Shown here piece after piece: positions 3 through 19,957 of a stretch of 19,957 bases of DNA (position 1 is its first letter; every line of letters begins with the position of its first letter). The translations under genes were made by a program, and so were the position numbers. The DNA comes from Candidatus Micrarchaeota archaeon. GTDB lineage: Archaea; Micrarchaeota; Micrarchaeia; Anstonellales; Bilamarchaeaceae. The stretch is from assembly GCA_040754495.1 (NCBI GenBank), contig JBFMCO010000057.1, forward strand, positions 1 to 19,957. The letters run 5' to 3'. The notes beneath the pieces were generated by a model. It saw nothing but the letters and a program-made list of their open reading frames with translations, had not been told where the DNA came from and did not search any database.

Positions 3-3000
3 CTTTTCCTTGCCGCAGAGGAGGTCCGCATCAACGGGGGGCAGGAAGACGCGGCGGTCGAATTCCGCAGGGAAGCCGTGAGGGCGGCCGAGGACATGTC
101 TGGCGGAGCGGCATGGGCGGAAGGGAACCTCGCCAGGACGCTGGCGAATTTCCTCTCCGGAGAACTCGAAACGGCAGCCAACGGCCGCTGGCTCGGGGAG
201 CATCAGGACATACAGGGCCTGCTCCGCGATATTGCCGCAAACCTCCATGCGCTCGCAGAACGCCCCGAAGGCGCCACGGCGGAGGACTTCACGCGCGGCA
301 GGGCCGCGCTCGGCATCGCTTCAGACATGGAACAACGGCTGACCGGCCGCCACCCGCCGGCATCCGAATCAATTCAGGGTGCCCTGGCAGTCTACGGCCG
401 GGCGCTCGAATCGCTGAAAGAAAGCGGAGACATAGAAGCGGCGCTCGGGGAGGCGTCCCTTGGAGCAGCGTATCTTTCTGCCGGCAGCGATGAGGAGAGG
501 CACGACATCGAAACTCTTTCGCTTGCGCTTCACGATGACCCGGCGCAGCTTTCCCGCGTCAGGGATTACGTGGAGCTAAGTGGGAGGATCGCCGGCTTGG
601 AAGAAGAAAGGGACATGCAGAGGGAAGGAAGCGCAATGCGCGCAAACCTCGACACCATCATAGCCGAACTCGGACGGGCCGCGGCCAGGATAGCTGCGGG
701 GGGCGGGCTGGCCGACGAAGCCTGGGTTTCGCAGGAGGAAGAGGACCTGAGGGGACGCGTCCTCGTGGATGATAATACAAGGCGCATGGTTGAAGACTAT
801 GCCGCCCGGAACCAGATGTCGCTCGAAGATGCCATCCATACCATTGCGACGCAGCAGGCGGAGGCGCGGGCCGGCGTGCTGCTTACTGCCGGAGAAAAAA
901 TGCTGGAGGTCCTTGGCGGCCTCCGGGGCTCTGCCCGCAGCGAGGCTGCGGAGATTTTCGGCTTCGCAATAAGCGCGGCAATTGAAGGCCGCATCGATGA
1001 CGCCGGCTTGTTCATGCAGGCTGCCAGGTCATACGCAGGGCTTGAAAACGATACGGACAGGGAAGCGATTCTCAGGGTATGCCGGGAGTATAACGGCTCT
1101 TTCGTGGAAGAGTATGCCGGACCTGTTCTTGACGGGGGAACTGCAGAACGCATGCTGCGCGTGCAGCAGGAGCGGGCAAGTTACCTGGGAGCCGTAACGG
1201 ACAGGGAGCTTCGCCGAAATGCGACCGCGTATTTCGACCTTGCATTAATGGCAGCCGAGGGCATTGACGCGGCCGACGCTGAGTTCGTGCTCCACCTTGC
1301 CGTCTCATACGCCCGGGCCGCAGCCCTGCCTGAGCGCACGCTCGGCGCGGTGTTGCGCGAGGAGAGGGGCGAGGTCATGGCGCTGGCCGAGCAGCAACTT
1401 GGCGATTACAGCGAATTCAGCGGGCGCCGCGACACCACTGTTGCCAGCGGCAGGATACTCAACCTTGGAACAGAAGAATCGAGGCTCAGCGAGTCGGACA
1501 TTACCGGCCCCGTCGCGGTTGCGCTCGTAACGCAGCGGCCGGTGAAGGAAGCCATCGGGGAGGCGGAAGCGCTTGCAAAGTCCATCCCCCTGGCTGAGGC
1601 TGACATCGCCGCGCTCGGTATCGGCCGGCTCGTGGAGCTGGAAGGCAGGCTTACGGCATTCGAGAGCGCGGCCGACCTGTTCGCATTCGAAGAGCGCCTC
1701 GCGGAAGCGAGAGGGACGGATGAGCGGCGCAGCGAAAGAAGATATGGTTCCGAATCGGAAAGGCTGCTCCGGGAAGCTGAGCGCGCAAGGGCGGCGGGCG
1801 ATTCAGAGCTTGCGGAATGGTTTGCCATGCAGGCAGGGCTGATAGACCGCGGCTCGGTTACAGGGATGCTTGATAGCGCACGGGAGATATTCATCAGCGG
1901 CCAGGAGATGCTTGGGGCTGCGGTCGAGCGCGGGCGCGAGGCCGCAAGGGCCGACGCCGCCGGAAACAGCGAAGAAGCGCTCCGGCTCAGGATGGAAGCG
2001 TTCGAGATGGAGCGCCAGGGTGCCCGCCTCATAGACGCCGCGGACCATGCAGTAGCGGCCCTTTCCGATTTTGACAGGAGCGTGCAGCGCATCACGACAA
2101 GGCAGAGGGAGGATGGCCGCCTGGAGCTTTCGGTGAGCGCCAGAACGTACATCGCCATTGGGGAGAGCAGGGATGTGGACCTTCTCGGCAATCCGGTTGC
2201 CGCACCTGTCGAAGCTGGGGCGGAAGCAGTTGCAGCGTCATTAACCGAAGAACGCATCGCCACCCTCACTCAGAACGCACGCTCGGCCCAGCAATCCGGA
2301 AGCCAGGCAGTCCGGCAGCAGGCAGCAATCCAGAGAACGCGCGGTCAGCTCATGGACCAGGCGGAGGCCGGACTCCACCGGGCGAACCTTGAAAATGCCA
2401 GGCGCCTTATCGAGCCGCTCATCATGATGCTCCCCGAAGCCGAGAGGCAGGAGCATACGGAGCGCCTTGATGCCGCCTATTCATCAGGCAATGTGGCAGC
2501 CCTCCAGGAGCTTTACATGGAGCTGGCCGGGGAGGATTTCCCCGATACCGGCATACCTGCCACAGATTCGCAGGGGCGGGCCACATATGACATAACGGCA
2601 GTCGAGCAGTCTTACCAGCGCGTGCGCAGGCTTGCATGGAGCGAGAGTTTCGGGGCTGCGGGCAGGGAACTGGGCGAAGGCGTTACGGCCATGCAGACGA
2701 GCTTCGAAGCAACCCAGTCCGCCCTGAGGGACATCCAGTTGGTGGGGGTTGGCAATGCGGCCCGGTACGGGCGCGGAGTGGCGGAGGCGCAGGCTGCACA
2801 GCTTGCCGGACAGCGTGACGTTGCCCTCGGCGGGGCCATGTCCGGCTACATAGGGGCTGCGGAGCAGACAGACCCGCAGGTGCTGGCAGCCCTGGTAATC
2901 AACTACGTAACCGACCCGGCAGAGCGGAGAAGGCTTCTGGAGAGGCTTTGCCAGCCCGGAATGCAGGGCGAGGCCGGTGAAGAGGCCAGGAGGCAGCTGC

Positions 3001-6000
3001 TTGAAGAGCTCGACGCCATCGAAGTACATGACCCCCTTTCGGGTGCGACGACTACAATCAGGGACATGCTCACCAGCGGCGAGCTTGCGTATTACCATAT
3101 TGATACGTACGTGAGCGGGCCGAACGGATTTAACGACATCATCGACATGGTCGAGCGGGGCGAACTCGAGAACGCATCCGTGCTTCTTGGCGCCCTTCAG
3201 ACAGAGGTGGCAAGCGCTTACGTGGCGCAGGAACTTGATTCCCGCGCCCTCGGCCAGGCGTATGTCGTGGGCATAAGGATGCAGGATGGGGGAGGGCGAC
3301 TTGTTGAATATTCCGGGGAAGGTCCCAGGCCTGAGGACAGCATCGAAGTCACCGATGGACTGTTGTGGGTGCGGACCTACAGCGGCGGCATATGGGAGGA
3401 ATTCGACGAAACAGCGCCCCCTGAAGAAAGCAGCCGCCATCTTGAGCAGCGCATGAGAAGGGCAAGGGCCCTGCTGCCAGTCCTTGAGGCCCTTAGCGAC
3501 AGCATGGGCCGCAGCGCGGCAGAGCATTACGAGGCAGCGGCCTCATACCGCGCCGCCCGCGACGGCATACTCAACGGTGAGGCGCCGCTTGAGCTAAACC
3601 CGGCCCTCGCAGCGGACCTGCTTACCGGGTTGGACAATGCCGCAGCAGAGGGGATGCTGCCCTCAGGGGTCCAGACTCTGAGATACCGCCGGATGGTTGC
3701 AGGCATCGAAGCTGCCACAGACCCTGCTGAAAAGGCCCGGAGGGCGCAGGAGTTTTTCCTGGCAATCGGCCGCGACCCGCAGGCGCTTGGAGCGGCCCTT
3801 GACGGGATAGACGCACTCCCGCAGGGGGTGCAACTGCTTACACCCTTTACGAATACAGCTCTTGCACATCTTACTGGAATGGAGCAGGAGGCGCTCGCCA
3901 CGGAACATGACGGCCAGAGGCAGGTCGCATGGACCTTGTCCAGGACGTGCCTCAGGAACATGCAGGTCCAGCTCAGGATGGGCGATGACGCGGAGACGTA
4001 CAGGTACGAAACCAGCCAGCAGACCAGGCGCGAGGCGGAGGTGTATGGATGGGTCGCACCCACTTCGACGTCGGCGTATCATCGCGAGCTTGGGGGGAGG
4101 CGGGCCGCGCTAGCGCTCACGATTCTGGACGAGGAAAACGACAGGAGGGCGAGGGACATCGTGTATAATGGGGAAACCGTTGCCACCCATCAATATTCAT
4201 TCGAACCGCTTGGCATATCCGCAGGCACTGTCCACATCCAGGTGGCCCAGGAATTGATGACTCTCAATTACTTAGAGACTATGGAAATCCAGTCGTACGT
4301 AGAAGCGGACATCTCCGACATTTCCACACAGGCCCTCGGCTACATGGCCGCGAGGCTCTCGCGGCTCGACCTTGCACAGATAGGCCTGGCCACGGAAGTG
4401 ACCACTGACGAGAACCGGCGGCTTATTATGACGCTCAGTCCCGTCATGGTGGCTGAAGTCAGGCATGATGCGAACGGCAATGTCATGACAGACGAGTCTG
4501 GAAATCCGATAACCGATATGGTGCCCCTGGACCGGGCAAGCCCGGAAGTGCGGGCGGAGTATTACCAGCGCCTCGGGATGCTCCAGGAGCAGTCCATGCG
4601 GCTTAATGACATTCTGCTTGGAGCATTCTTCGCCCATGACACGAGCTGGGGCGAGAATCCGCAGTACAACCTCATGTCCAGGATGAACAGCAGGACGGAG
4701 TCATTGGACCAGGCGCTTTCCTGCCTCTTCAGATGGGCCGGCGCAACTCCGGAACAGCGGCCTGAGGAGCTCCGCGGCTTTGACGCACTGTACAATGTGA
4801 GCGTCCCGATTACTGCCGAATCCGGTTACCGCGATACGGATGCAGACACAAACGCCACCCTGTCGGACCTCAGAATGTGGCAGACCGGGCGCAGGATTGT
4901 AGGCATTGCCGGCACGATGGTTGAGGCGGGGGTCGGCGTGGTCCTGGCGGCGCCCACAGGCGGCGCGTCATTGTTTATCACAGGAGCCCATATGGGCGCA
5001 GAGGGAATAATCGGCGGAATAGAGATGTACCGGCAGCAAGGGGAGATGACATGGAGCGCTGGGTTCCAGATAGTGACCGGCGCATTGGGAATCCTTCTCC
5101 CCATCGGCACGATGGCTTCCGGCATGAGGGCTGTCGCCATGCCTGTTGCCGCGATGGAAGCCGGCGAAGCGCTTGGGACCGGCGCCGCACGGACCGGCGC
5201 GCTCTACAGGCTGATTGGACAGCCAGGAATGGCACCAGAGATGTATACCACTGGACAAAGGTTTGGCCAGTTCTTCCTCGGCGCGCCTGAGGCAGGCATT
5301 TTAGACAGGGCAGTGCAGTTCGGCGGGAGCATGCTCATGCTGAGCGGCGGTGGCATGTTCATTGCTCAATCCGTTCCGGGGCTGGCGGCTGCAATCCAGA
5401 GCGACGAGACCAGGTGGTGGGATTATGCCGAGCTTGCGCTCGGCGGCTTCCAGAACCTGGCGCTTCCGGCCATACAGGCACGCGCGAACATGCTTTATGT
5501 TTCGCAAAGGTATGCGAGCGGCGGCGCGGTGACGCGCTCGCTGACGAGGCAGATTGTCGAAGCGATGACTATTGGGACTCCCATGGATACACCGTTCGGA
5601 TTCGGGGTGGCAAGGGCCCAGTACGAGGCGAACCGCAGCTTCACCGAGCTTTCGCGCGCCGACCCCGCCTTCGCGGACAATTATCATTCTTTCATTGCAC
5701 GAAGCGGCATCGCGTTCACCCCGAGGCAGGAAGCGGAAGTGCTTGCGATTTACCGGGACGCGCATGCTGAAAACCCTTCCATCAGCTTCCATGAGTTCGC
5801 CGCCGGGGAGGGCGCAGGCTCGGCGCGGTTCCGCCAGATTTGCAACGAGTCCGCGCTCGAAGCTGTCATGACCGGCAGGGCGTCGTTTTCAGACCTCGAC
5901 CCTTCGCAGAGGGCTTACATCGAGACAAGGTATGGGTTCGAGAACCCCAACAGCCCTGAAGCGATTGCGGCTGCGGACCGGGCTGCGAGCGAGGCCGGAA

Positions 6001-9000
6001 TGGCCGCAGCCGGGCGCGAGGTGGAAGCGGCCGCAGCGGCGTGGTCGGCGCAGCAGCCGGCGGCGCCCCGCATGCCCCCTGCGGGCGAAATCGAGGCGAG
6101 GCTGACTGCAGCGGAAGAGGCCGATGCGCAGGCTGCGGCCGCGCGGAGGACGCAGGAGCAGGCTGCCCTTTCAAGGCGGCTGGACGTCCAGTTCACGGCC
6201 AGGGAGGGTACTGATTACATAATGGGACGCGGCGAGAGCGCCATCAGATATTCGCGGGAGCATTTCCAGGGGGCCGCGGATATTATTTATCGCGCAGAGG
6301 AGATACTAAGATTGCCGGAGGGCGACGCGCGCACGGCTGCACTTGAGGCGCTGCCGGAGAACGTGCGGACGCAGGTCCGTGACCTAGTGCTCGACAGGGA
6401 ATTTGTCGAGGCTGCGAGAAGCGGAAACTCGAGGACGAAGCTGATGCTCGGCCTGGAGAGGGCTGCGTATCTGCCAGAGATTGCCATGCGACCCGAAGTG
6501 ATGGCAGCCGGATATGCCACGGAGGCGCAGCTTCTTGCACAGAGGCGGGAGATAGGACCGGAAAGGCTTCTGGATTACGCCGCCCAGCGAAGGGAAGACG
6601 CAACCAGAATAAGAACCGAAGCGCAGGAGGCGCTGAGGCATGCTGAGGGGCTGCTTGCAAGGCCGGACAGGACGCCTGAGCAGAGAGGCAGGATTGAGGA
6701 GGCGATAGCGGCTGCGAGGGCCCGGCTCGCGATGGCGGATGCCCTGGACAACAGCGCGCTCATCCTTGAGCATGCTGCGACGGCCAGAAGGGAAGGAGCC
6801 GCGGCGCCTGCAGTTCCGCAAGAGGCGATTGAGGAGCCGGTGACCCCGCAGATAATTACCCCGCGATTGAGCGAGAGGCTGCGCTCCGTAGGGGTGGAGC
6901 TTACGCCGGAAACCAGCCACCAGCTTGAGGGTGATATCGGCGATTTGAGGGCAGGCATCATCACCCTTAACCAGTTCTGGGAGAGGCTCGGCCGCATAAT
7001 GGGTGGCAGGCCGGAGGCGCTGCCAGCGACCCTGAGAATGGACAGGCCGATCCCATCTTTCGAGGAATTCGGCCTTGTTCTCCAGAGCCCCGAGGCGCTC
7101 AGGTTCTTCGTAGAGGTAACCGCAGAGGCGCTGCCGCAGGTCTTCGCTCCCCCGGAAACGGCAGGGCTTTCCGAAACTGCGAGCGTTAATGTCGGCTTCG
7201 TGTCATTCGATTTGAGGAGGCAGAATTTCCTGAACTCGCTGGCGAGGGGCATCAGCAGGGTTACCGGCGACGTGAATGTCTATGAATATTTCACAAGAGT
7301 CGTCCGCGATGCGCCTGCCGAAGTGAACAGGCGGCTTGCCGCGGAAGGGCTTGACGCTACGGTCACCTCTGCTGCCTTCGGCACCAGCTCGGATGAATCC
7401 GGATTCCTGATAATGGCCAGGGATGAGCGCGCAAGAGGCAGGGCGCGCGAAATACTCGATGAAGTGCTGAACGAGAGCTTCAGGTTCGAGGGAAGCGCCC
7501 TTGATTATGTAACCAGGGGGACGGCAATCAGGCCGTATATCGAGGAGATATTCGCCACAAGAGGACGGGTCGGGACCGGCGGGGCTTTCGTGGAGCTTTC
7601 GGTCGCGGACTTCCGGCAGATGGCTGGCGAGCGGGGCGGGGTGGAGGGTTTCATAGATTTCATGAGGCGCATGGCAGACTCGCATATAGAAGCCGAAGAC
7701 TGGGTTAGGCAGGAGGCAGGCGTTCCCACCACCGCTGAGCTTCCTGAAACGTCCCTGCATTTCATGTCCGATGCGGTTCTGGAGAGGCCGTACATTGAAG
7801 AAAGCGGGAGGATGGGCGAAAGATACAGGACAAACCAGGACTACATGGACAGCGTCTTCGACAATCCGCAGGTGAGGGAGAACGATTCGGTAGTCGTTAT
7901 CGAAGGCGGACTGACCATCACAGACAGGAGCAGCGAGGCATATGCGACCCTGGCCTCGCTCGGCGCGAAAAAGGGCAAGATGTATGGTGCCACCACCGAG
8001 GGCAGGGTGGGCCTTTCCGTCTCCAATCTCCCCTCCCAGGCATCCGGAGAGGAGTTCCTTTTCGTGAACAGGGAGGCGGCAAGGAGCGCAGCCGACAGGT
8101 TTGCCGCAGAGCACGGAATCAGCCCTGAAACAATCGAGATAAGGCAGACGGGGGCCGGGCCGGACTTCGTATTTGTAGTAAGAGGACGCCGGCTGGAGGC
8201 TGCCGATGTCCAGGAACTCCTCGGATATTACCGGGAGACGGGCCAGGAGCTTTTGAGCGGAGAGTTCGGCGTGTCGGCCAGCGGAGTGCTGCTTACAGGA
8301 GAGAGGATAAACTTCAGTGATTACCGGGCTGCAATGAGATACCTGAAGGACGGGGCAGCATTCGGCGACATGTCTGCTGGCCCCGAAGGCAGATATGTGC
8401 CGGTGGAGGAAATTCCGGCCGATTATACTGCACGGGCCATGAGGCTTGATGGGGCAGGAAACATCCTTGGCCTCTTCCTTTCATCCGAGAGCATATCTTC
8501 CAGCGATACGGCAATGGCCCAGCAGCTGGCGCGCCTTGCGGGCGAAAGCTTTGTAGCAGATTTCAGGGCATTCATGCAGAGGGAGCACATTTCCATAAGA
8601 AACTGGGAGGACCTGAGGGTCGCGCTTGAGGGGTTCCCGGGAGGGGAAGGGATTATTCGGACGCTTTCCGGCGACGACTTCCTTCTCTTCGTGGAGCGGC
8701 AGTATCCCGATGCGACTCAGCAGCGGGCGGCTGCTGCGATAAGAAGGGCCGAGGCCGAGAGGAGGGGGGAGAACTTCGAGCGGCCTTTCGAAGAGGAATT
8801 CCCCGTAGCGCCACAAGAAGAGGTGGCTGCGATGGCTGTGGGTGCGGAGGAGATGGCAGCTCCGGCTGAGACCGCCCCCCACGGAGTTCCCGAAGCACAG
8901 GTTGTGCCACTTGAAGCACCGCGTTCCGTCGAGGCTCGACCAGCATACGAAGTAGGGCCGCGGCCGGAGGGAGCCGAAAGGCTGCGGGGAAGAGATGCGC

Positions 9001-11882
9001 CAAGGCCGAATGACTTCATCGGCATGGCCCCGAACGACGAGGCGCTTTCAGGCAGAGGTGTGCGCTACGCCGGGCCGTTCAGGCTCCAAGAAGGAACACG
9101 GGTTGCAGAATTCACGGTTACGCGAGGGGAAGGCGAGCCTCCGATTCAGATACGGATAGCTGAAGCCGATGACGCGACGCTTGCAAGGCTCGGCATCAGC
9201 AGAAAGGAGTATTTCCTGCAGCAGCTCGACATGGCAATCCGCTCACCCGGCAGAGGGCCGGGCGGCGGAGGAGCTTCTGGCCCGGGAGGAGAGGGGGCCC
9301 CGGTTGCCGCAGGCGAGCCGCATGCCGCTCCGCATATAGAAATTACTCCACGGCCTGAGGCACAGCCGGCCGAAGCACCGGTCTCTTCGCAGTTGAGGGC
9401 AGCCGCAGACGAGGTAATGGAAGCCCGCAGGGCGGCCGGGAACGAGGCCCTTGTTTCCCGCGAGGCAGTCGATGCCGAAGTGAGCTGGGCTGCAAGGTAT
9501 GGCGCGGGCCGCCAGCCCGAAACGGCTCTTGAGAAGCTGCTGTTCCATGCCGCTGATAGCGCGGCGGCGGCAGCCCGAGCCCGGGGCGGCGAAGTACAGA
9601 CGAGGGAGGTCACAGCATTCCATGCGATTGAGCAGATAAGCATCGGGGCAGGCCAGCTCATGCACGAGGTTATGGCAGGGCGGCTGCCGCAGGAGTTCAG
9701 GCGCAAGTACGAATTCGGGATGGCAAGGGCCGCCAGCCAGGGGCGGACCCAGCCCACACTCGAGGATTTCATGTTCGGCTTCGCTCTTGCCAACGAGGCC
9801 GGCCCGGTGTTCGGGAGCTATATACAAGCCGCCATGGAGCGGGCTTCTCCCGCCGGTGCGTTCCGGGACATAGAGGGGTATGCATTGACCGCATTGTCTC
9901 TGGCAGACCGCATGAGGAACCCCGTGACAGCGCTGACAAGCAGCGGATTCCAGAGCTGGATTGTCAAGAGTGCGCTAAACGAGGTATTCGGCCTTGCCGC
10001 CAGCCTCCATGTGGCTGGAGTTCACGACCCCCTGGCGCTATTCATAAATCCCGACGCCGCAGGCCATCCCAAAAACGCAGGCCTGCTTGATTTGTTCCCT
10101 CCAACCAGTGGCGAGGATTCTTTCTTTGACCTCTCGGATGCGGCGGGGTCGTTTGCCAGCATCCTTGCGAAGATACCTTCGGGAGAGCTTCCAATTACGA
10201 GGCAGGTCGGCGCCAGGCAGTTTGAGGCCGCAATATCTGCGCCGGAGGCCATCCAGGCTGTTTTCGCTTATACCCTTGCAGACATAAGACGGCTTCCCGA
10301 CTCGCTCTCGAGAAGGTCATATTTATCCAATCTGGCTGAGCCGTTCTCATGGACCGATTCGCTGAGCAGGGGGCTTGGAGAGGTACTCATCAACGACCAG
10401 GGGCAGGTATCGGCTCCACGCATAACAGACAGGCGCACGCCTCTTCTTGCATATGGCCTCGCATCACCAACAAACAGGATGCTTGCTGAATATTTGGGAA
10501 GCAGGGCCGCATTGAAGAAACTTGACCCCAACGCGAATTTCAGGGCAGCTGTCGACCTTGCCCAGACAGTGGAGGAAGTGACATGGGCGGTCAATCACCC
10601 GGAGCAGGCCGGTGCAGTTGGCCGCAGCGAGCGTATGAGAGCGTGGCTGGACGTTGTCGAGGGGATGCTGCAACGGCTACCAGCATCCGAAAGCGAGGGG
10701 ATGCTGGGCAGCGTAATGCCACAGCTCGTGAGGGTAATGAGGCATTTCCGGAACGGCCGGCTGAGCGCAGAACAGTTGGGCGAGGTCTGCCAGCTCCTCT
10801 CAGGCGCGCAAAGCGTCTCCGAGTTCAGGTCGCTCTTCGGACAGTGGTATAACAGGACGTTCTTCTCGGACCTCCAGCTCAGCGACGCCTTCGTTGCAGA
10901 CAACGTGGACGTTTTGCTTGACTTCGGCGGATACCGCGAGAACCTGGAAAGATTCACATCCGGCGGCGAGAGGCCTGCTGCGAACCACGAAATCTTTGCA
11001 GGCAATCCCAGGTATGCAGCAGTAAACCCGTATGCGGCCCGCAACCGTCCGGAGGCTTACGATGAGGTCATAGGGGTGCTGGAGGAAGCGATGCGCGCAA
11101 GGGCAGCCGGGCCGGAGGCTTTCGCAAGATTCAAGTTCTCCGAGGAATTTCACTCTGAATTGCAGGGAACGTATAGCCGGCCGTTGCAGCTTGATGCGGA
11201 TTACACAAGGCAAGGGGGTGTGGAAAGCGGAACGGCGCAGGGGGAGGCGATATTCCAGGTATGGCGCCAGGAGCACACCGGCCATGAGTTCAGCGCAGGC
11301 GGCAGGACTTACCAACTGAGCGAGAGCGGCTCTTTCGAAGCGGGGTTCTACAGTGCCCGCATACGCGGCGAGCAGAGCTGCCAGGATCCGACGAACCCGA
11401 ATCCGCACGTTGTCGTGGCGGGCCTGACAGGCACGGTGGAGCTTCCATGGGTGAAGACCATAGCTGTGAGGCTTCCGGATTTGCCTGACACTGTTTTCAG
11501 AAGAACACTCGTCCTTGTACAGGGAGAAAACGGCCCAATCCTGCTGGTGCAGCCGGAATACCACCAGCCGGACCTGCCAGGCTTGGACGCAATGAATGCA
11601 GAGGTGCTCGGTTATCTCAGGGGTATATATGAGCCGCTGGGGGTGGAAGTCAGGGATGTTTCCAAGGCGAGCATTAGGGAGGGCGGGGATGTGACCGGAT
11701 TCAGCACTTTCAGCAGCGGCCGCTCGCCGTTCTTTTACCTGGACAGCGACATGTGGCATTTTGTAGCAGGCCCGCACCAGATGGGCCAGAACGGCCTTCA
11801 TACCAGAAGAAGTGGAGAAGCGGTCGGATTCCCGGCCGAGTGGAGCGGAAGAATAGACCTTGAAGCGGCATACAGAAGGTGA
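3..11882 (+). CDS. Giant (>=3959 aa, 5'-truncated by the window) Ala/Glu/Arg-rich, Lys-depleted multidomain protein; putative membrane-inserting effector or giant receptor
   Basis: Uninterrupted frame from nt 3 (CTT TTC CTT GCC GCA GAG..., LFLAAEEVRINGGQEDAAVEFRREAVR) to TGA at 11880-11882. The GTG at 78 in the ORF track is internal, so the true start is upstream of the window. An 11.9 kb open frame cannot be chance. The function is inferred from its modules. Confidence 0.95.
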   Translation, partial: LFLAAEEVRINGGQEDAAVEFRREAVRAAEDMSGGAAWAEGNLARTLANFLSGELETAANGRWLGEHQDIQGLLRDIAANLHALAERPEGATAEDFTRGRAALGIASDMEQRLTGRHPPASESIQGALAVYGRALESLKESGDIEAALGEASLGAAYLSAGSDEERHDIETLSLALHDDPAQLSRVRDYVELSGRIAGLEEERDMQREGSAMRANLDTIIAELGRAAARIAAGGGLADEAWVSQEEEDLRGRVLVDDNTRRMVEDYAARNQMSLEDAIHTIATQQAEARAGVLLTAGEKMLEVLGGLRGSARSEAAEIFGFAISAAIEGRIDDAGLFMQAARSYAGLENDTDREAILRVCREYNGSFVEEYAGPVLDGGTAERMLRVQQERASYLGAVTDRELRRNATAYFDLALMAAEGIDAADAEFVLHLAVSYARAAALPERTLGAVLREERGEVMALAEQQLGDYSEFSGRRDTTVASGRILNLGTEESRLSESDITGPVAVALVTQRPVKEAIGEAEALAKSIPLAEADIAALGIGRLVELEGRLTAFESAADLFAFEERLAEARGTDERRSERRYGSESERLLREAERARAAGDSELAEWFAMQAGLIDRGSVTGMLDSAREIFISGQEMLGAAVERGREAARADAAGNSEEALRLRMEAFEMERQGARLIDAADHAVAALSDFDRSVQRITTRQREDGRLELSVSARTYIAIGESRDVDLLGNPVAAPVEAGAEAVAASLTEERIATLTQNARSAQQSGSQAVRQQAAIQRTRGQLMDQAEAGLHRANLENARRLIEPLIMMLPEAERQEHTERLDAAYSSGNVAALQELYMELAGEDFPDTGIPATDSQGRATYDITAVEQSYQRVRRLAWSESFGAAGRELGEGVTAMQTSFEATQSALRDIQLVGVGNAARYGRGVAEAQAAQLAGQRDVALGGAMSGYIGAAEQTDPQVLAALVINYVTDPAERRRLLERLCQPGMQGEAGEEARRQLLEELDAIEVHDPLSGATTTIRDMLTSGELAYYHIDTYVSGPNGFNDIIDMVERGELENASVLLGALQTEVASAYVAQELDSRALGQAYVVGIRMQDGGGRLVEYSGEGPRPEDSIEVTDGLLWVRTYSGGIWEEFDETAPPEESSRHLEQRMRRARALLPVLEALSDSMGRSAAEHYEAAASYRAARDGILNGEAPLELNPALAADLLTGLDNAAAEGMLPSGVQTLRYRRMVAGIEAATDPAEKARRAQEFFLAIGRDPQALGAALDGIDALPQGVQLLTPFTNTALAHLTGMEQEALATEHDGQRQVAWTLSRTCLRNMQVQLRMGDDAETYRYETSQQTRREAEVYGWVAPTSTSAYHRELGGRRAALALTILDEENDRRARDIVYNGETVATHQYSFEPLGISAGTVHIQVAQELMTLNYLETMEIQSYVEADISDISTQALGYMAARLSRLDLAQIGLATEVTTDENRRLIMTLSPVMVAEVRHDANGNVMTDESGNPITDMVPLDRASPEVRAEYYQRLGMLQEQSMRLNDILLGAFFAHDTSWGENPQYNLMSRMNSRTESLDQALSCLFRWAGATPEQRPEELRGFDALYNVSVPITAESGYRDTDADTNATLSDLRMWQTGRRIVGIAGTMVEAGVGVVLAAPTGGASLFITGAHMGAEGIIGGIEMYRQQGEMTWSAGFQIVTGALGILLPIGTMASGMRAVAMPVAAMEAGEALGTGAARTGALYRLIGQPGMAPEMYTTGQRFGQFFLGAPEAGILDRAVQFGGSMLMLSGGGMFIAQSVPGLAAAIQSDETRWWDYAELALGGFQNLALPAIQARANMLYVSQRYASGGAVTRSLTRQIVEAMTIGTPMDTPFGFGVARAQYEANRSFTELSRADPAFADNYHSFIARSGIAFTPRQEAEVLAIYRDAHAENPSISFHEFAAGEGAGSARFRQICNESALEAVMTGRASFSDLDPSQRAYIETRYGFENPNSPEAIAAADRAASEAGMAAAGREVEAAAAAWSAQQPAAPRMPPAGEIEARLTAAEEADAQAAAARRTQEQAALSRRLDVQFTAREGTDYIMGRGESAIRYSREHFQGAADIIYRAEEILRLPEGDARTAALEALPENVRTQVRDLVLDREFVEAARSGNSRTKLMLGLERAAYLPEIAMRPEVMAAGYATEAQLLAQRREIGPERLLDYAAQRREDATRIRTEAQEALRHAEGLLARPDRTPEQRGRIEEAIAAARARLAMADALDNSALILEHAATARREGAAAPAVPQEAIEEPVTPQIITPRLSERLRSVGVELTPETSHQLEGDIGDLRAGIITLNQFWERLGRIMGGRPEALPATLRMDRPIPSFEEFGLVLQSPEALRFFVEVTAEALPQVFAPPETAGLSETASVNVGFVSFDLRRQNFLNSLARGISRVTGDVNVYEYFTRVVRDAPAEVNRRLAAEGLDATVTSAAFGTSSDESGFLIMARDERARGRAREILDEVLNESFRFEGSALDYVTRGTAIRPYIEEIFATRGRVGTGGAFVELSVADFRQMAGERGGVEGFIDFMRRMADSHIEAEDWVRQEAGVPTTAELPETSLHFMSDAVLERPYIEESGRMGERYRTNQDYMDSVFDNPQVRENDSVVVIEGGLTITDRSSEAYATLASLGAKKGKMYGATTEGRVGLSVSNLPSQASGEEFLFVNREAARSAADRFAAEHGISPETIEIRQTGAGPDFVFVVRGRRLEAADVQELLGYYRETGQELLSGEFGVSASGVLLTGERINFSDYRAAMRYLKDGAAFGDMSAGPEGRYVPVEEIPADYTARAMRLDGAGNILGLFLSSESISSSDTAMAQQLARLAGESFVADFRAFMQREHISIRNWEDLRVALEGFPGGEGIIRTLSGDDFLLFVERQYPDATQQRAAAAIRRAEAERRGENFERPFEEEFPVAPQEEVAAMAVGAEEMAAPAETAPHGVPEAQVVPLEAPRSVEARPAYEVGPRPEGAERLRGRDAPRPNDFIGMAPNDEALSGRGVRYAGPFRLQEGTRVAEFTVTRGEGEPPIQIRIAEADDATLARLGISRKEYFLQQLDMAIRSPGRGPGGGGASGPGGEGAPVAAGEPHAAPHIEITPRPEAQPAEAPVSSQLRAAADEVMEARRAAGNEALVSREAVDAEVSWAARYGAGRQPETALEKLLFHAADSAAAAARARGGEVQTREVTAFHAIEQISIGAGQLMHEVMAGRLPQEFRRKYEFGMARAASQGRTQPTLEDFMFGFALANEAGPVFGSYIQAAMERASPAGAFRDIEGYALTALSLADRMRNPVTALTSSGFQSWIVKSALNEVFGLAASLHVAGVHDPLALFINPDAAGHPKNAGLLDLFPPTSGEDSFFDLSDAAGSFASILAKIPSGELPITRQVGARQFEAAISAPEAIQAVFAYTLADIRRLPDSLSRRSYLSNLAEPFSWTDSLSRGLGEVLINDQGQVSAPRITDRRTPLLAYGLASPTNRMLAEYLGSRAALKKLDPNANFRAAVDLAQTVEEVTWAVNHPEQAGAVGRSERMRAWLDVVEGMLQRLPASESEGMLGSVMPQLVRVMRHFRNGRLSAEQLGEVCQLLSGAQSVSEFRSLFGQWYNRTFFSDLQLSDAFVADNVDVLLDFGGYRENLERFTSGGERPAANHEIFAGNPRYAAVNPYAARNRPEAYDEVIGVLEEAMRARAAGPEAFARFKFSEEFHSELQGTYSRPLQLDADYTRQGGVESGTAQGEAIFQVWRQEHTGHEFSAGGRTYQLSESGSFEAGFYSARIRGEQSCQDPTNPNPHVVVAGLTGTVELPWVKTIAVRLPDLPDTVFRRTLVLVQGENGPILLVQPEYHQPDLPGLDAMNAEVLGYLRGIYEPLGVEVRDVSKASIREGGDVTGFSTFSSGRSPFFYLDSDMWHFVAGPHQMGQNGLHTRRSGEAVGFPAEWSGRIDLEAAYRR
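936..1313 (+). repeat. Pair of 34-aa TPR-like helical repeats within the giant protein
   Basis: RSEAAEIFGFAISAAIEGRIDDAGLFMQAARSYA (936-1037) and RRNATAYFDLALMAAEGIDAADAEFVLHLAVSYA (1212-1313) align ungapped with 12/34 identities, at a 92-codon period. Confidence 0.55.
4896..5474 (+). other. Gly/Ala-rich hydrophobic multi-helix segment (membrane insertion/translocation-type) of the giant protein
   Basis: IVGIAGTMVEAGVGVVLAAPTGGASLFITGAHMGAEGIIGGI, WSAGFQIVTGALGILLPIGTMASG, AVQFGGSMLMLSGGGMFIAQSVPGLAAAI and WWDYAELALGGFQNLALPAI. APTGGASL lies at 4950-4973. Confidence 0.7.
7188..8780 (+). other. Tandem degenerate GGDEF/palm (nucleotide cyclase-like) modules in the giant protein
   Basis: Module 1: FVSFDLRRQNFLNS...TGDV...FGTSSDESGFLI...RVGTGGAF...FMRRMADSHIE matches the GGDEF order DxDxFKxxND...GD...GGDEF...SIG...RRAD. 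Further signature-like motifs are SGEEFLFV (8043), AGPDFVFVV (8154), and MRLDG (8439) with IRTLSGDDFLLFV (SGDDF at 8667-8681). Confidence 0.55.
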
Positions 11883-14226: not shown

Positions 14227-15183
14227 CTAGGCCTCCCGGCACGCTTCGTCGTAGCACGTCCAGGGCTGGTAGCAGAACGGCCCTTCATCGTCCTCGCAGC
14301 ACGGCGCATCCTGATACCCGCAGCCGGTGCGCTCGATGAAAGCCTGCGTGACTATGAAATAGTCGTTGACTCGTGCGACTCCGATTCCGGTCTCGTCAAA
14401 CCTCGTCTCGAGAATATTCGCCTTGTGGCCCGCGCTTCCCATCCAGCCGCCGACTATAATGGACTCGAGCTGGCTCTGGCTGAGCCAGTGGATAGCCGAC
14501 CATCTCACCCGCGTGGCGTTTTTCACAAAGTCGAGGCGTTCCTCGTAGTCGGCGCTCACGCGGGCTGCCGCGTCCTCGCCTTCGTATTCGTGGACTATCT
14601 GGGTGCCGGTCTCCGGGCAGTCTTCAGGCTGGTTGTAGGTGAGCGCGTAATCCCAGGCGGATATCATGAAGATGTTCTCCCCGGCCGCGCTGAAGTAGAA
14701 TACGCTCCGGTTATAGAGCCGGTCGGTTTCGTAGAGCCCGAAATCGAAGCCCTCGTGGTGGATGAAAGGCCTCTTGCAGAAAAGCGACGGCTCGGTGAGG
14801 GGCTGATTCTCCCTGGCGAGGCTGAGGCTGTGGTCCCGCGCCACCGAAGCCACGTCGTCGTTCCACTTCAGCGGCGATATCCCCGCCTTTATCCGCTCGG
14901 CGTTTATCAGGTCGAACAGCCTTTTTTCCATCCCGGCGAGGGAGTAATTCTCGGTCTGGTTGGCGCTCATGTTCCCGATTACCGCTGCCGGAGGCGGCTG
15001 GCCGCTGACGTTTATGTACTGGACTATGATGGGCGTCGCGTTCTGGACCGGCGGCTCGCGCACGAAATAGTATTGGGTGGTGTTGAGCTGGGGCGGCTGC
15101 TCCGGCTCCTGCGGAGCTTCGGCCGGCGGCGATGAGACGCACCCGAGCAGCGCTAGCGCGATGAGAAGATATGGGAGCCTCAT
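14227..15183 (-). CDS. CAP (SCP/PR-1/YkwD) domain lipoprotein with an internal insertion and a C-terminal 6-Cys mini-domain (318 aa)
   Basis: Signal/lipobox MRLPYLLIALALLGC, then a Pro/Gln linker. CAP motifs LINAERIKAGISPLKWNDDVASVARDHS, HHEG, GENI, WMGSAGHKANIL and TGIGVA...TQAF. Start set at ATG 15183 because the TATA box is 28 nt upstream (the track start at 15198 is too close to it). Confidence 0.92.
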   Translation of the reverse strand: MRLPYLLIALALLGCVSSPPAEAPQEPEQPPQLNTTQYYFVREPPVQNATPIIVQYINVSGQPPPAAVIGNMSANQTENYSLAGMEKRLFDLINAERIKAGISPLKWNDDVASVARDHSLSLARENQPLTEPSLFCKRPFIHHEGFDFGLYETDRLYNRSVFYFSAAGENIFMISAWDYALTYNQPEDCPETGTQIVHEYEGEDAAARVSADYEERLDFVKNATRVRWSAIHWLSQSQLESIIVGGWMGSAGHKANILETRFDETGIGVARVNDYFIVTQAFIERTGCGYQDAPCCEDDEGPFCYQPWTCYDEACREA

Positions 15184-15205
15184 GGAGGGGATAATCATCG
15201 GGAAA

Positions 15206-17640: not shown

Positions 17641-17728
17641 GCATGCCGTTCATCCCCGGAAGAGAGGCACTAGCGGACTATTTATTCATCACCAGGGCTC
17701 GTTTCCGCGGCCCGAACCCCGGCAAGGA

Positions 17729-17734
17729 TTTAAT
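17729..17734 (+). promoter_or_regulatory. TATA-like box for the nuclease gene
   Basis: TTTAAT 28 nt upstream of ATG 17757. Confidence 0.55.
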
Positions 17735-17756
17735 TCCCCTTCAGCGTTTGCTAGTC

Positions 17757-18413
17757 ATGTACAAACTGTCCCCCTCGTCCCTGTCGCTGCTGAAGGACTG
17801 CCCGCGCTGCTTCTGGCTACGCTTCAGGAAGAAGGTGAAGCGGCCGGAAGGCATCTTTCCGTCCTTGCCTTCTGGCATGGACAAGATACTTAAGGAGCAT
17901 TTCGACCGTTTCAGGGCAGCCGGGAAATTGCCGCCCGAGCTTTCGAAGCTCGACGGCCAGGTGAAGCTTTTCGACGACATGAAGCTGCTTTCTGACTGGA
18001 GGAACAACTTCAAGGGCATCCAGTGGAAGGATTCCGAGGGCAACCTGTTCAGGGGAGCGGTGGACGAGATACTGCAGAAGGGGAGCAGGCTGATAATACT
18101 CGATTTCAAGACGAGGGGCTTCGAGAGGGACGAGAGCACGCTGGGCTATTACCAGGACCAGCTCGACATCTACAACCTGCTTTTCAGGAAGAACGGCTAC
18201 AAGACCGAGGAGTATTCTTATCTGCTGTTTTACATGCCGGACAAGGTGGACGAGAAGGGAGAGGTGCTCTTCAACAGGGAACTTGTCCAGATGCGCATAG
18301 ACGTAGGCAACGCCGAGAGGATTTTCAAAGAGTCCTTGGCTGTTTTGGCCGGAGAGATGCCGGAGCCGGATGCGGAGTGCGAGTATTGCAGGTGGGCGAA
18401 GGAGTGGGAATAA
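17757..18413 (+). CDS. RecB-family PD-(D/E)XK nuclease (Cas4/AddB-like, 218 aa) with CxxC...CxxC
   Basis: LSPSSL..L.DCPRCFW N-terminus, GAVD (motif II), ILDFKT (motif III), QLDIY (RecB QxxxY) and C-terminal CEYCRW. Start moved from 17643 to ATG 17757 on the basis of the family N-terminus and the TATA box. Confidence 0.9.
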   Translation: MYKLSPSSLSLLKDCPRCFWLRFRKKVKRPEGIFPSLPSGMDKILKEHFDRFRAAGKLPPELSKLDGQVKLFDDMKLLSDWRNNFKGIQWKDSEGNLFRGAVDEILQKGSRLIILDFKTRGFERDESTLGYYQDQLDIYNLLFRKNGYKTEEYSYLLFYMPDKVDEKGEVLFNRELVQMRIDVGNAERIFKESLAVLAGEMPEPDAECEYCRWAKEWE

Positions 18414-19383: not shown

Positions 19384-19815
19384 CTACGTTCTGTAGAGAA
19401 CAAAGTGGGGCAGCTTCTTTAGGCCGATATAATTGAACATTTTGTAGTTTGCCCTTCGGGCAGACGGAGGGAGAACCCGTTTTTTTAGGTTCTCTTTTGG
19501 TACGAAAGGATAGAACACAATCTTCTGCCGTTTGTGGCCGCGTTCAATCCATTTGAAATTAACAATGAGGGGCGGGATCATGAAACCCGATTTCAATACC
19601 TTGTCTATTATGTCCCACCCAGCGCCCAAGATTTCATTAGTAGGTTTTGAGTTGTTTGTTTTTACTTGCGCCCTGAAAGAACAGCCAGTACATTGTACAT
19701 CATAAAGGGGGTAATTAGGAGGCAGGCGCGCCAACATTTTTCCGCAGTTGGGGCAATGGACTTTTTTTACGACTTCTATTTCCCCAACGTTCCCTGCATC
19801 TGAGCTTTTGCTCAT
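19384..19815 (-). CDS. DpnI-like (Dam-replacing family) nuclease catalytic domain only, 143 aa
   Basis: GNVGEIEVV-CPNCG-L..N.PLYDVQCTGC-QVKT-I.GAGW-LPPSARRANY..N parallels DpnI as I recall it (LTEDWV-CPNCG-NNRPVADFYCNHC-ELKS-INDGAY-LAPTARRAGW..N). The stop comes before the C-terminal winged helix. The track's N-terminal extension from 19872 is mostly IS-end sequence. Confidence 0.75.
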   Translation of the reverse strand: MSKSSDAGNVGEIEVVKKVHCPNCGKMLARLPPNYPLYDVQCTGCSFRAQVKTNNSKPTNEILGAGWDIIDKVLKSGFMIPPLIVNFKWIERGHKRQKIVFYPFVPKENLKKRVLPPSARRANYKMFNYIGLKKLPHFVLYRT

Positions 19816-19831
19816 GAAGAGATTGGAACCG

Positions 19832-19856
19832 TGGAGTGAACCCCTATTTGTAGACA
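19832..19856. repeat. IS3-family terminal inverted repeat (right end)
   Basis: TGGAGTGAACCCCTATTTGTAGACA has the IS3/IS150-like pattern 5'-TG...ACCCC...TAGAC and starts just beyond the transposase stop. Confidence 0.75.
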
Positions 19857-19861
19857 ACCAG

Positions 19862-19957
19862 TTAAGCCACATTCCCGTTTAAAAATCTCACCTCAAACTC
19901 ATTGGGCGGCACATATCCTATCGACGAGTGCAGCCGCTTTGAGTTGTAGACCTCCTC
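19862..19957 (-). CDS. IS3-family DDE transposase (OrfB/integrase core), C-terminal 31 aa, partial
   Basis: Minus-strand translation EEVYNSKRLHSSIGYVPPNEFEVRFLNGNVA* matches the YN..R.HS.LGY..P..FE signature. It is not in the ORF track because it has no start in the window. Confidence 0.88.
   Translation of the reverse strand, partial: EEVYNSKRLHSSIGYVPPNEFEVRFLNGNVA

Follow-up and report, generated by a model that had tools for sequence, protein, structure and literature searches.

Can a protein segment that matches none of the family libraries we searched be traced to the GGDEF diguanylate cyclases and, if so, what might it still do? The question is raised by a 19,957-base stretch of DNA from a Candidatus Micrarchaeota archaeon (hereafter the window), which is one entire contig (JBFMCO010000057.1) of a genome bin with 72 contigs and 1.63 Mb. 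The window carries a giant open reading frame (ORF) of 3959 amino acids (aa), whose residues ~2396-2926 had been described in an earlier note as an array of about three degenerate GGDEF/palm modules, the last with an SGDD motif. Our comparisons point instead to a single conserved cassette of 652 residues (residues 2284-2935, window positions 6852-8807), wider than the range of 7188-8780 given earlier, which falls inside it. The cassette would consist of a lead-in, a GGDEF-derived module 1, a linker, a degenerate GGDEF-like module 2 and a tail. The explanation that we hold to be the best overall, with a confidence only slightly above even, is that these GGDEF-derived modules form one conserved unit in which module 1 would bind guanosine triphosphate and magnesium (GTP-Mg) and perform nucleotidyl transfer. 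The motif strings quoted in the earlier note were all recovered, at the positions that it gave, in the plus-strand giant ORF (Table 1).

A conserved cassette and its relatives

An exhaustive phmmer search with residues 2284-2935 against 1.84 billion representatives found eight proteins at E <= 0.001, the window's own included, and all are giants of 1521-6652 aa; a word-based search for relatives of the cassette gave three proteins, one of them new to this group, which we call family A. Seven of the 401 sampled genomes of the phylum hold a family-A cassette, one of them by a weak 277-aa match that we discount, and the genome studied here carries a paralogue, 51% identical, on its contig 42. Ten family-A sequences were aligned (alignment A1), and a search with the A1 profile returned 6 of the 99 genomes of the family, the same six, so that the alignment was not deepened.

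A blind genome scan with the GGDEF model (PF00990) gave weak matches of 24.8, 22.5 and 19.2 bits in three related genomes, where they fall within frames of 5706, 4683 and 3377 aa. The cassette of these giant proteins, family B, has a first module that reads ...ISADKRRLNQINDIFGMENGDRAL...IRPSPRGDEVIGII..., a second module that reads ...LNTFLGHYGANRVI...HGLTIRRLGTMKYIIEGG..., and a tail that contains ...IRNFEDLV...; it is present in 28 of the 401 phylum genomes and, among the genomes searched, never occurs together with family A. The same three parts make up family C, whose members are standalone proteins of ~540-610 aa (typically ~575); the family is found in 31 of the 401 phylum genomes and in 21 of the 28 genomes of the genus. 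The two families match each other with an hhalign probability of 99.8% (E 7e-29; all hhalign comparisons were run without predicted secondary structure). The family-C gene of the genome studied here (contig 19, 7166-8875, minus strand, 570 aa, without a Pfam family) adjoins genes for the ribosomal proteins L3, L4 and L22, a Cbf5/TruB-PUA gene and an EMC3/TMCO1-like gene, a neighbourhood that gives it the look of a core chromosomal gene.

The window's cassette is joined to these families by long collinear alignments. A1 matched family B over 432 columns (probability 90.2%, E 1.5e-6), the official hhalign tool giving much the same result (87.3%, E 3.7e-6, 431 columns), and it matched a merged profile of B, C and intermediates (29 sequences) with a probability of 95.7%, E 9.8e-9 and a score of 77.7; for comparison, the reversed profile scored 23.8, 40 column shuffles reached at most 18.7 and 30 block shuffles (25-column blocks) at most 36.6. 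Taken block by block, the tails of A and B matched with a probability of 75.8% (E 2.3e-5) and the second modules with E 1.3e-3 over 133 columns, while for module 1 the score was 22.5 against a shuffle maximum of 19.3, reached by none of 80 column shuffles; two shuffle series had one outlier each (133.6 and 132.4, 1/80 each) above the real score. An unguided MAFFT alignment of the A and B first modules placed every motif in register. The lead-in, which is specific to family A, falls outside the part alignable with families B and C.

The surroundings of the cassette agree with the alignments. Residues 1609-2258 of the giant protein (positions 4827-6776) are 31% identical (BLASTP E 6e-45) to the 5706-aa frame, and the matched stretch of that frame ends directly ahead of the family-B cassette. 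The giant proteins thus have a trunk in common as far as the cassette and diverge beyond it, and, with a match of E 6e-45 ending just before both cassettes, A and B therefore sit at an equivalent position in homologous giant proteins. As judged from these comparisons, the cassette is homologous over its length to the superfamily of B and C. In the shared stretch, a hydrophobic segment rich in Gly (APTGGASL...) is followed by ~600 further residues.

A far relationship to GGDEF domains

Families B and C can in turn be aligned to GGDEF domains. Against 33 canonical archaeal GGDEF domains, B/C module 1 gave an hhalign probability of 75.4% (E 2.4e-5) over 95 columns, which extend from the helix ahead of strand 1 up to and including the hairpin and pair SDE with GEE, and B/C module 2 scored 28.2-32.3 (32.3 at E 8.9e-4); the highest score among fifty column shuffles was 22.2, and the reversed alignment scored 18.0. 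A custom GGDEF hidden Markov model (HMM) matched module 1 in 12 of 12 family-B members, with independent E-values (iE) from 7.5e-6 to 0.16, and gave in all 12 a second match in module 2, in the same register and individually insignificant. In direct Pfam scans, 7 of the 12 aligned family-B members matched GGDEF at E <= 1, the best of them with 28.3 bits against a curated cut-off of 23.8 (cassette residues 46-136 on profile positions 27-113 of 161). Diguanylate cyclase was likewise the sole NCBIfam family recurring across the four matching B members, always below its cut-off. When searched against PDB sequences, the family-B module-1 profile ranked GGDEF chains in the first two places, not significantly (4zve, E 0.56; 3icl, E 0.66), and a merged A and B module-1 profile placed a diguanylate cyclase third (E 0.87). 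For the family-C protein of the genome studied here, nine of ten structural-neighbour rows in the ESM Atlas list PF00990 (89-100% of members), the tenth is named diguanylate cyclase, and a GGDEF cluster stands at feature rank 6 with a score of 0.89; we treat these neighbours as a lead, not as proof.

On this evidence from profiles, the B/C superfamily is a far relative of the GGDEF diguanylate cyclases, and we consider it probable that modules 1 and 2 of the window share GGDEF ancestry, the support being transitive, through B and C. Family A itself adds little to the link: its whole alignment matched the 33 canonical domains over 9 columns with a score of 22.6 (shuffle maximum 21.7), and adding A to B module 1 gave a probability of 43.6%, with the hairpin misaligned, as compared with 57% for B by itself. 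We do not file the cassette under PF00990, because the window's protein does not reach the curated cut-off of the model, which is reached solely by the related family B, and because the GG[DE]EF signature is absent; on these two counts the cassette is set apart from the members of that family. The picture of an array of repeats holds insofar as each of the first two modules separately resembles GGDEF, but a comparison of module 1 with module 2 detects no similarity (hhalign E 0.26 within family A and 0.23 within family B).

Conserved residues of module 1

The motif residues of module 1 do not stand there by chance. Ten residues of the module are invariant in all ten family-A sequences: D2403, N2411, R2419, G2422, D2423, Y2429, N2442, S2462, D2464 and E2465. 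When the 12 family-B sequences are added, D2403, N2411, G2422, Y2429, D2464 and E2465 are still invariant in 19 of 19 rows, and D2423 is present in 18 of the 19. Through the chain of alignments, D2403 falls at the position that we take to be the metal-binding Asp of strand 1 in PleD-type cyclases, and D2464-E2465 at what is presumably the acidic pair of GG[DE]EF, which together with D2403 would make up the metal-binding positions; it is the B/C-to-GGDEF alignments that place these three residues. N2411 (eight residues after the Asp) and D2423 (in the Gly-Asp pair) stand, by alignment register, at positions that we assume to be guanine-binding in the same cyclases. The profile alignments arrive at the registers proposed earlier for module 1 (D-x7-N, GD, and SSDE at the GGDEF hairpin). 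The signature itself is altered, module 1 reading T-S-S-D-E-S and the family consensus G-x-S-S-D-E-A-G, with the acidic pair kept. A Y-family polymerase-like reading of the D...SxDE pattern was dropped, as no library supports it.

Module 2 and the tail

In module 2, G2658, K2659, N2675 and G2682 are invariant within family A, and at the position following G2682 at least 90% of rows have Asp (family consensus GDEF), while the window has Glu (E2683). The alignment places LSVSNLPSQASGEEF on LNTFLGHYGAN of B/C, equivalent to ND..GH..GD of GGDEF domains, and TGAGPDF on LGTMKY of B/C, equivalent to the GGDEF hairpin; we prefer this bridged register for its collinearity over 133 columns. It bears out the earlier assignments of AGPDF to a second hairpin and of FGVSASG/DYRAAMRYLKDG to the last strand and helix. 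Module 2 has neither the strand-1 Asp nor a conserved acidic pair.

The region formerly taken for a third module is the counterpart of the B/C tail. It carries I-R-N-W-E-D, its residues R2866, D2870 and Y2901 are invariant in family A, and from its hydrophobic spacing (I-R-N-[WF]-E-D) it looks helical.

Function and alternative explanations

With D2403, D2464 and E2465 as well as N2411 and D2423 kept at the presumed GGDEF positions, module 1 most likely still binds GTP-Mg and transfers nucleotidyl groups; taken as a claim of its own, that module 1 is catalytically active we put at slightly short of an even chance. Module 2, having lost its acidic residues, would by analogy with the degenerate half of two-domain cyclases most likely serve as a structural or regulatory partner, possibly one that holds a second nucleotide. 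The product could be cyclic diguanosine monophosphate (c-di-GMP), made after two cassettes pair, or a linear dinucleotide, or another nucleotide. In a more specific and quite unlikely version, the cassette would be an active, self-contained pseudo-heterodimeric cyclase, with one catalytic and one acceptor-holding domain, and its signal would be something else than c-di-GMP, such as a linear dinucleotide or a mixed one. In the giant proteins it would then be a nucleotide-producing effector head, either delivered to the host cell or acting at contact with it, and family C would be the cell's own version.

A number of results count against a GGDEF-derived cassette with an active module 1. Searched directly, neither the whole window protein nor the segment has any Pfam family at E <= 10, none of ten family-A members matches GGDEF (PF00990) at E <= 10, and none of ten family-C members scanned gives a Pfam GGDEF match. 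NCBIfam and PADLOC are blank for the window's cassette (as is PHROGs), phmmer finds no match to it among PDB sequences, and the family-A profile retrieves from the PDB just a serpin (E 0.76) and an RNA recognition motif (E 2.2); a further profile, A2, has no PDB match. The weakest block is module 1 itself: aligned alone between A and B it reaches only E 0.011 and a probability of 3.9%, close to the E 0.016 of an off-diagonal control in which A module 1 was aligned to B module 2, and A module 1 alone scores 13.6 against the GGDEF profile, a value reached by 18 of 60 shuffles. HMMs of the B modules, searched against nine full-length A proteins, placed module 1 correctly in two of the six with reported matches, at noise level. 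For module 2, a rival register that takes SGEEF as the hairpin scores about equally well against GGDEF directly. The Atlas model of family C is poor (predicted template modelling score [pTM] 0.29, predicted local distance difference test [pLDDT] 0.38), and its neighbours have template modelling (TM) scores of 0.25-0.33. Finally, SSDES in place of GG[DE]EF replaces the signature glycines and the Phe, and neither an RxxD site nor a clear C-terminal phosphate site of the KxxGRN type was seen in the cassette. The alignments are shallow throughout (10, 12 and 11 sequences for A, B and C; effective number of sequences, Neff, 3-5), and their members, being related, do not count as independent observations.

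Some of these points are also what one would expect if the resemblance to GGDEF came from chance and composition and the cassette were some other alpha/beta region: the lack of a direct match between the window's sequence and any GGDEF model, the noise-level comparison of A module 1, the shallow alignments (Neff 3.5) and Atlas neighbours with TM below 0.35 on a poor model. We nevertheless regard this explanation as improbable, as the 400-column collinear match to B/C far outscores all three kinds of control, the A and B cassettes occupy equivalent positions, family B exceeds the curated Pfam threshold, both B/C modules beat all 50 shuffles against GGDEF, and six invariant residues coincide across families. 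The main rival accepts the ancestry and takes the cassette to be enzymatically dead, a sensor of GTP or of c-di-GMP from the cell's canonical cyclases that switches the giant protein, in the manner of degenerate GGDEF receptor domains of bacteria. Here the replaced glycines and Phe of SSDES, a module 2 without acidic residues and the failure of every GGDEF model to recognise the sequence all fit, and with four canonical GGEEF-type genes in the genome c-di-GMP may be present as a ligand. Receptor-type degenerate GGDEF domains, with PelD, FimX and LapD as examples, as a rule retain RxxD but no longer have the acidic pair; what is invariant between A and B, in contrast, are the residues that we take to be metal- and base-binding, and not the RxxD motif of the inhibitory site. 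We therefore judge a dead sensor to be rather unlikely, though it is the strongest competitor to a module 1 that binds GTP-Mg and catalyses.

Highly improbable, in our view, is the third possibility, close to the original proposal, of three palm modules whose last has an active GGDD-type site (D2816 and SGDD) and lacks its final strand. The closest relatives do carry suggestive strings (RTLSGDDF, RRLSGDDF, TRLSGDEF and even RRLGGDEF), and in three of them the best local match of the custom GGDEF HMM falls on the motif, although not significantly (iE 0.069-11). SGD[DE]F is nevertheless found in only 4 of the 10 family-A homologues, so that SGDD (positions 8667-8678) is not a conserved feature, and D2816 varies between Asp, Asn and Glu; A module 3 matches GGDEF with E 0.15 in a different register, and the region aligns instead to the helical-looking B/C tail (E 2.3e-5), where no such motif is seen. 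We take RRLGGDEF in one relative's tail to be a coincidence. Of the three GGDEF/palm modules proposed, the profile alignments through B/C thus retain modules 1 and 2 and give up the third with its metal site. Nor is there support for placing the cassette with Cas10 Palm or the class III nucleotidyl cyclases: SGDD occurs in 4 of the 10 relatives, and Pfam gave no such family either for family A (E <= 10) or for family B (E <= 1).

Comparison with known systems

Relative to the GGDEF domain (PF00990; PleD, WspR, DosC/4zve), module 1 has the same order of elements, namely the strand-1 Asp, the Asn eight residues on, Gly-Asp and the acidic pair of the hairpin. What differs is the signature, [SG][SG]DE-x instead of GG[DE]EF; the length of the inserts, which are longer both from the first pair of helices to the hairpin and behind the third helix; and the setting, proteins of 1500-6650 aa in which the module is joined to a tail and to a degenerate second copy. 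A similar arrangement, with a palm-type domain that keeps its catalytic residues paired in one chain with a degenerate copy, is seen in mammalian adenylyl cyclase (C1/C2) and in Cas10 (Palm1/Palm2), but no sequence link to these two-domain cyclases was found, Pfam having given only GGDEF for family B. PelD, FimX and LapD are, like the cassette, GGDEF-derived with the signature lost; they keep an RxxD-type c-di-GMP site, whereas the cassette conserves catalytic-site residues.

The genome itself carries four canonical GGDEF genes of the GGEEF type (PF00990 scan, E 4e-39 to 2e-28; Table 1), and at least one is present in 37 of 61 related genomes, so that genes of the c-di-GMP-synthesis type are common in the lineage. 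Archaeal GGDEF proteins, some of them from metagenome-assembled genomes (MAGs) of DPANN archaea, are reported to have diguanylate cyclase activity (Sidorov et al., Mol Microbiol 2026, PMC13725321). The statement in the earlier note that c-di-GMP signalling is not established in archaea is accordingly out of date. According to that paper, 20 MAG-derived GGDEF proteins were chosen, most of them from contigs of DPANN and "class II" archaea. They would share a domain superfamily with the cassette and come from similar organisms, and the four canonical genes of this genome are of their type; unlike the cassette, they are short or sensor-linked with intact GGDEF/GGEEF motifs. A word search of the paper found no "Micrarchae", "tandem", "degenerate" or "large protein", and its supplements may list Micrarchaeota proteins. 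Among the titles and abstract openings of the literature that we surveyed, none mentions a cassette of two GGDEF-derived modules within giant archaeal proteins, or a standalone family like C.

If our explanation is correct, tiny symbiotic archaea would carry an undescribed two-domain offshoot of GGDEF, both as a standalone gene and as a cassette in giant multi-enzyme proteins, and archaeal nucleotide-signalling chemistry would extend past the canonical GGDEF proteins of 2026. It would also provide a first enzymatic handle on the function of otherwise unannotated giant proteins, and the conserved D/N/GD/DE constellation makes the proposal directly testable with a soluble fragment.

Genomic setting

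The giant protein as a whole has no Pfam, NCBIfam or PHROG family. Its neighbours with a Pfam assignment are listed in Table 1, together with the parts of the cassette and the canonical GGDEF genes encoded elsewhere in the genome; the other seven neighbouring ORFs scanned are without a Pfam family.

Table 1. Features of the window and canonical GGDEF genes of the same genome. Positions are those of the window unless a contig (C) is named; residue numbers refer to the giant ORF.
Feature	Position	Strand	Residue	Basis or remark
Giant ORF	3..11882	+		3959 aa, single frame; 5' end open (contig edge); carries the cassette
Lead-in, family A-specific	6852..7148	+		FW.RIN, R.FPS and LQSPE.L motifs; R2348 and L2366 invariant in alignment A1
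Module 1, putative GGDEF-derived domain	7149..7721	+		Invariant residues; alignment to B/C module 1
Variable linker/insert between modules	7722..7853	+		Poor conservation; length differs between families A and B
Module 2, putative degenerate GGDEF-like domain	7854..8366	+		Alignment to B/C module 2
Tail ("module 3" of the earlier note)	8367..8807	+		Alignment to B/C tail
Module 1 residue	7209	+	D2403	
Module 1 residue	7233	+	N2411	
Module 1 residues	7266-7271	+	G2422-D2423	
Module 1 residue	7287	+	Y2429	
Module 1 residues	7386-7397	+	S2462/D2464/E2465	
FDLRRQNFLN	7206	+	2402	String search
SSDES	7386	+	2462	String search
RRMAD	7665	+	2555	String search
SGEEF	8043	+	2681	String search
AGPDF	8154	+	2718	String search
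FGVSASG	8265	+	2755	String search
DYRAAMRYLKDG	8319	+	2773	String search
MRLDG	8439	+	2813	String search
RTLSGDDF	8658	+	2886	String search
CAP/cysteine-rich secretory family protein	14227-15198	-		Pfam
PD-(D/E)XK nuclease	17643-18413	+		Pfam
DpnI-like protein	19384-19872	-		Pfam
Canonical GGDEF gene	C45:29234-29707	-		PF00990
Canonical GGDEF gene	C45:28520-28993	-		PF00990
Canonical GGDEF gene	C12:890-1408	+		PF00990
Canonical GGDEF gene	C59:12322-12876	-		PF00990

A few observations on the giant proteins may be added. In some of them, a candidate HD-type phosphohydrolase module (H...HD) adjoins the GGDEF-like cassette, with a Pfam HD match of E 0.033 and 14.9 bits that is below the cut-off. 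It lies at frame residues ~182-218 of L044:3-1829 (G275:C13), and a similar stretch follows the cassette in P0010, so that the candidate module stands upstream of the cassette in one giant protein and downstream in another; by eye, no obvious counterpart is seen in the window's protein. Module 2 of one family-B member (L055:1468-2958, minus strand, G288:C6; cassette residues 309-372) is weakly matched by the PADLOC model PDLC00817, "Cyclase, oligonucleotide-cyclase" (E 0.002, 15.3 bits), and the other four proteins scanned gave no such match. The composition of the window's cassette (positions 6852-8807) is 0.6% Lys, 10.3% Arg and 10.6% Glu, which fits the avoidance of lysine that had been noted for the protein as a whole.

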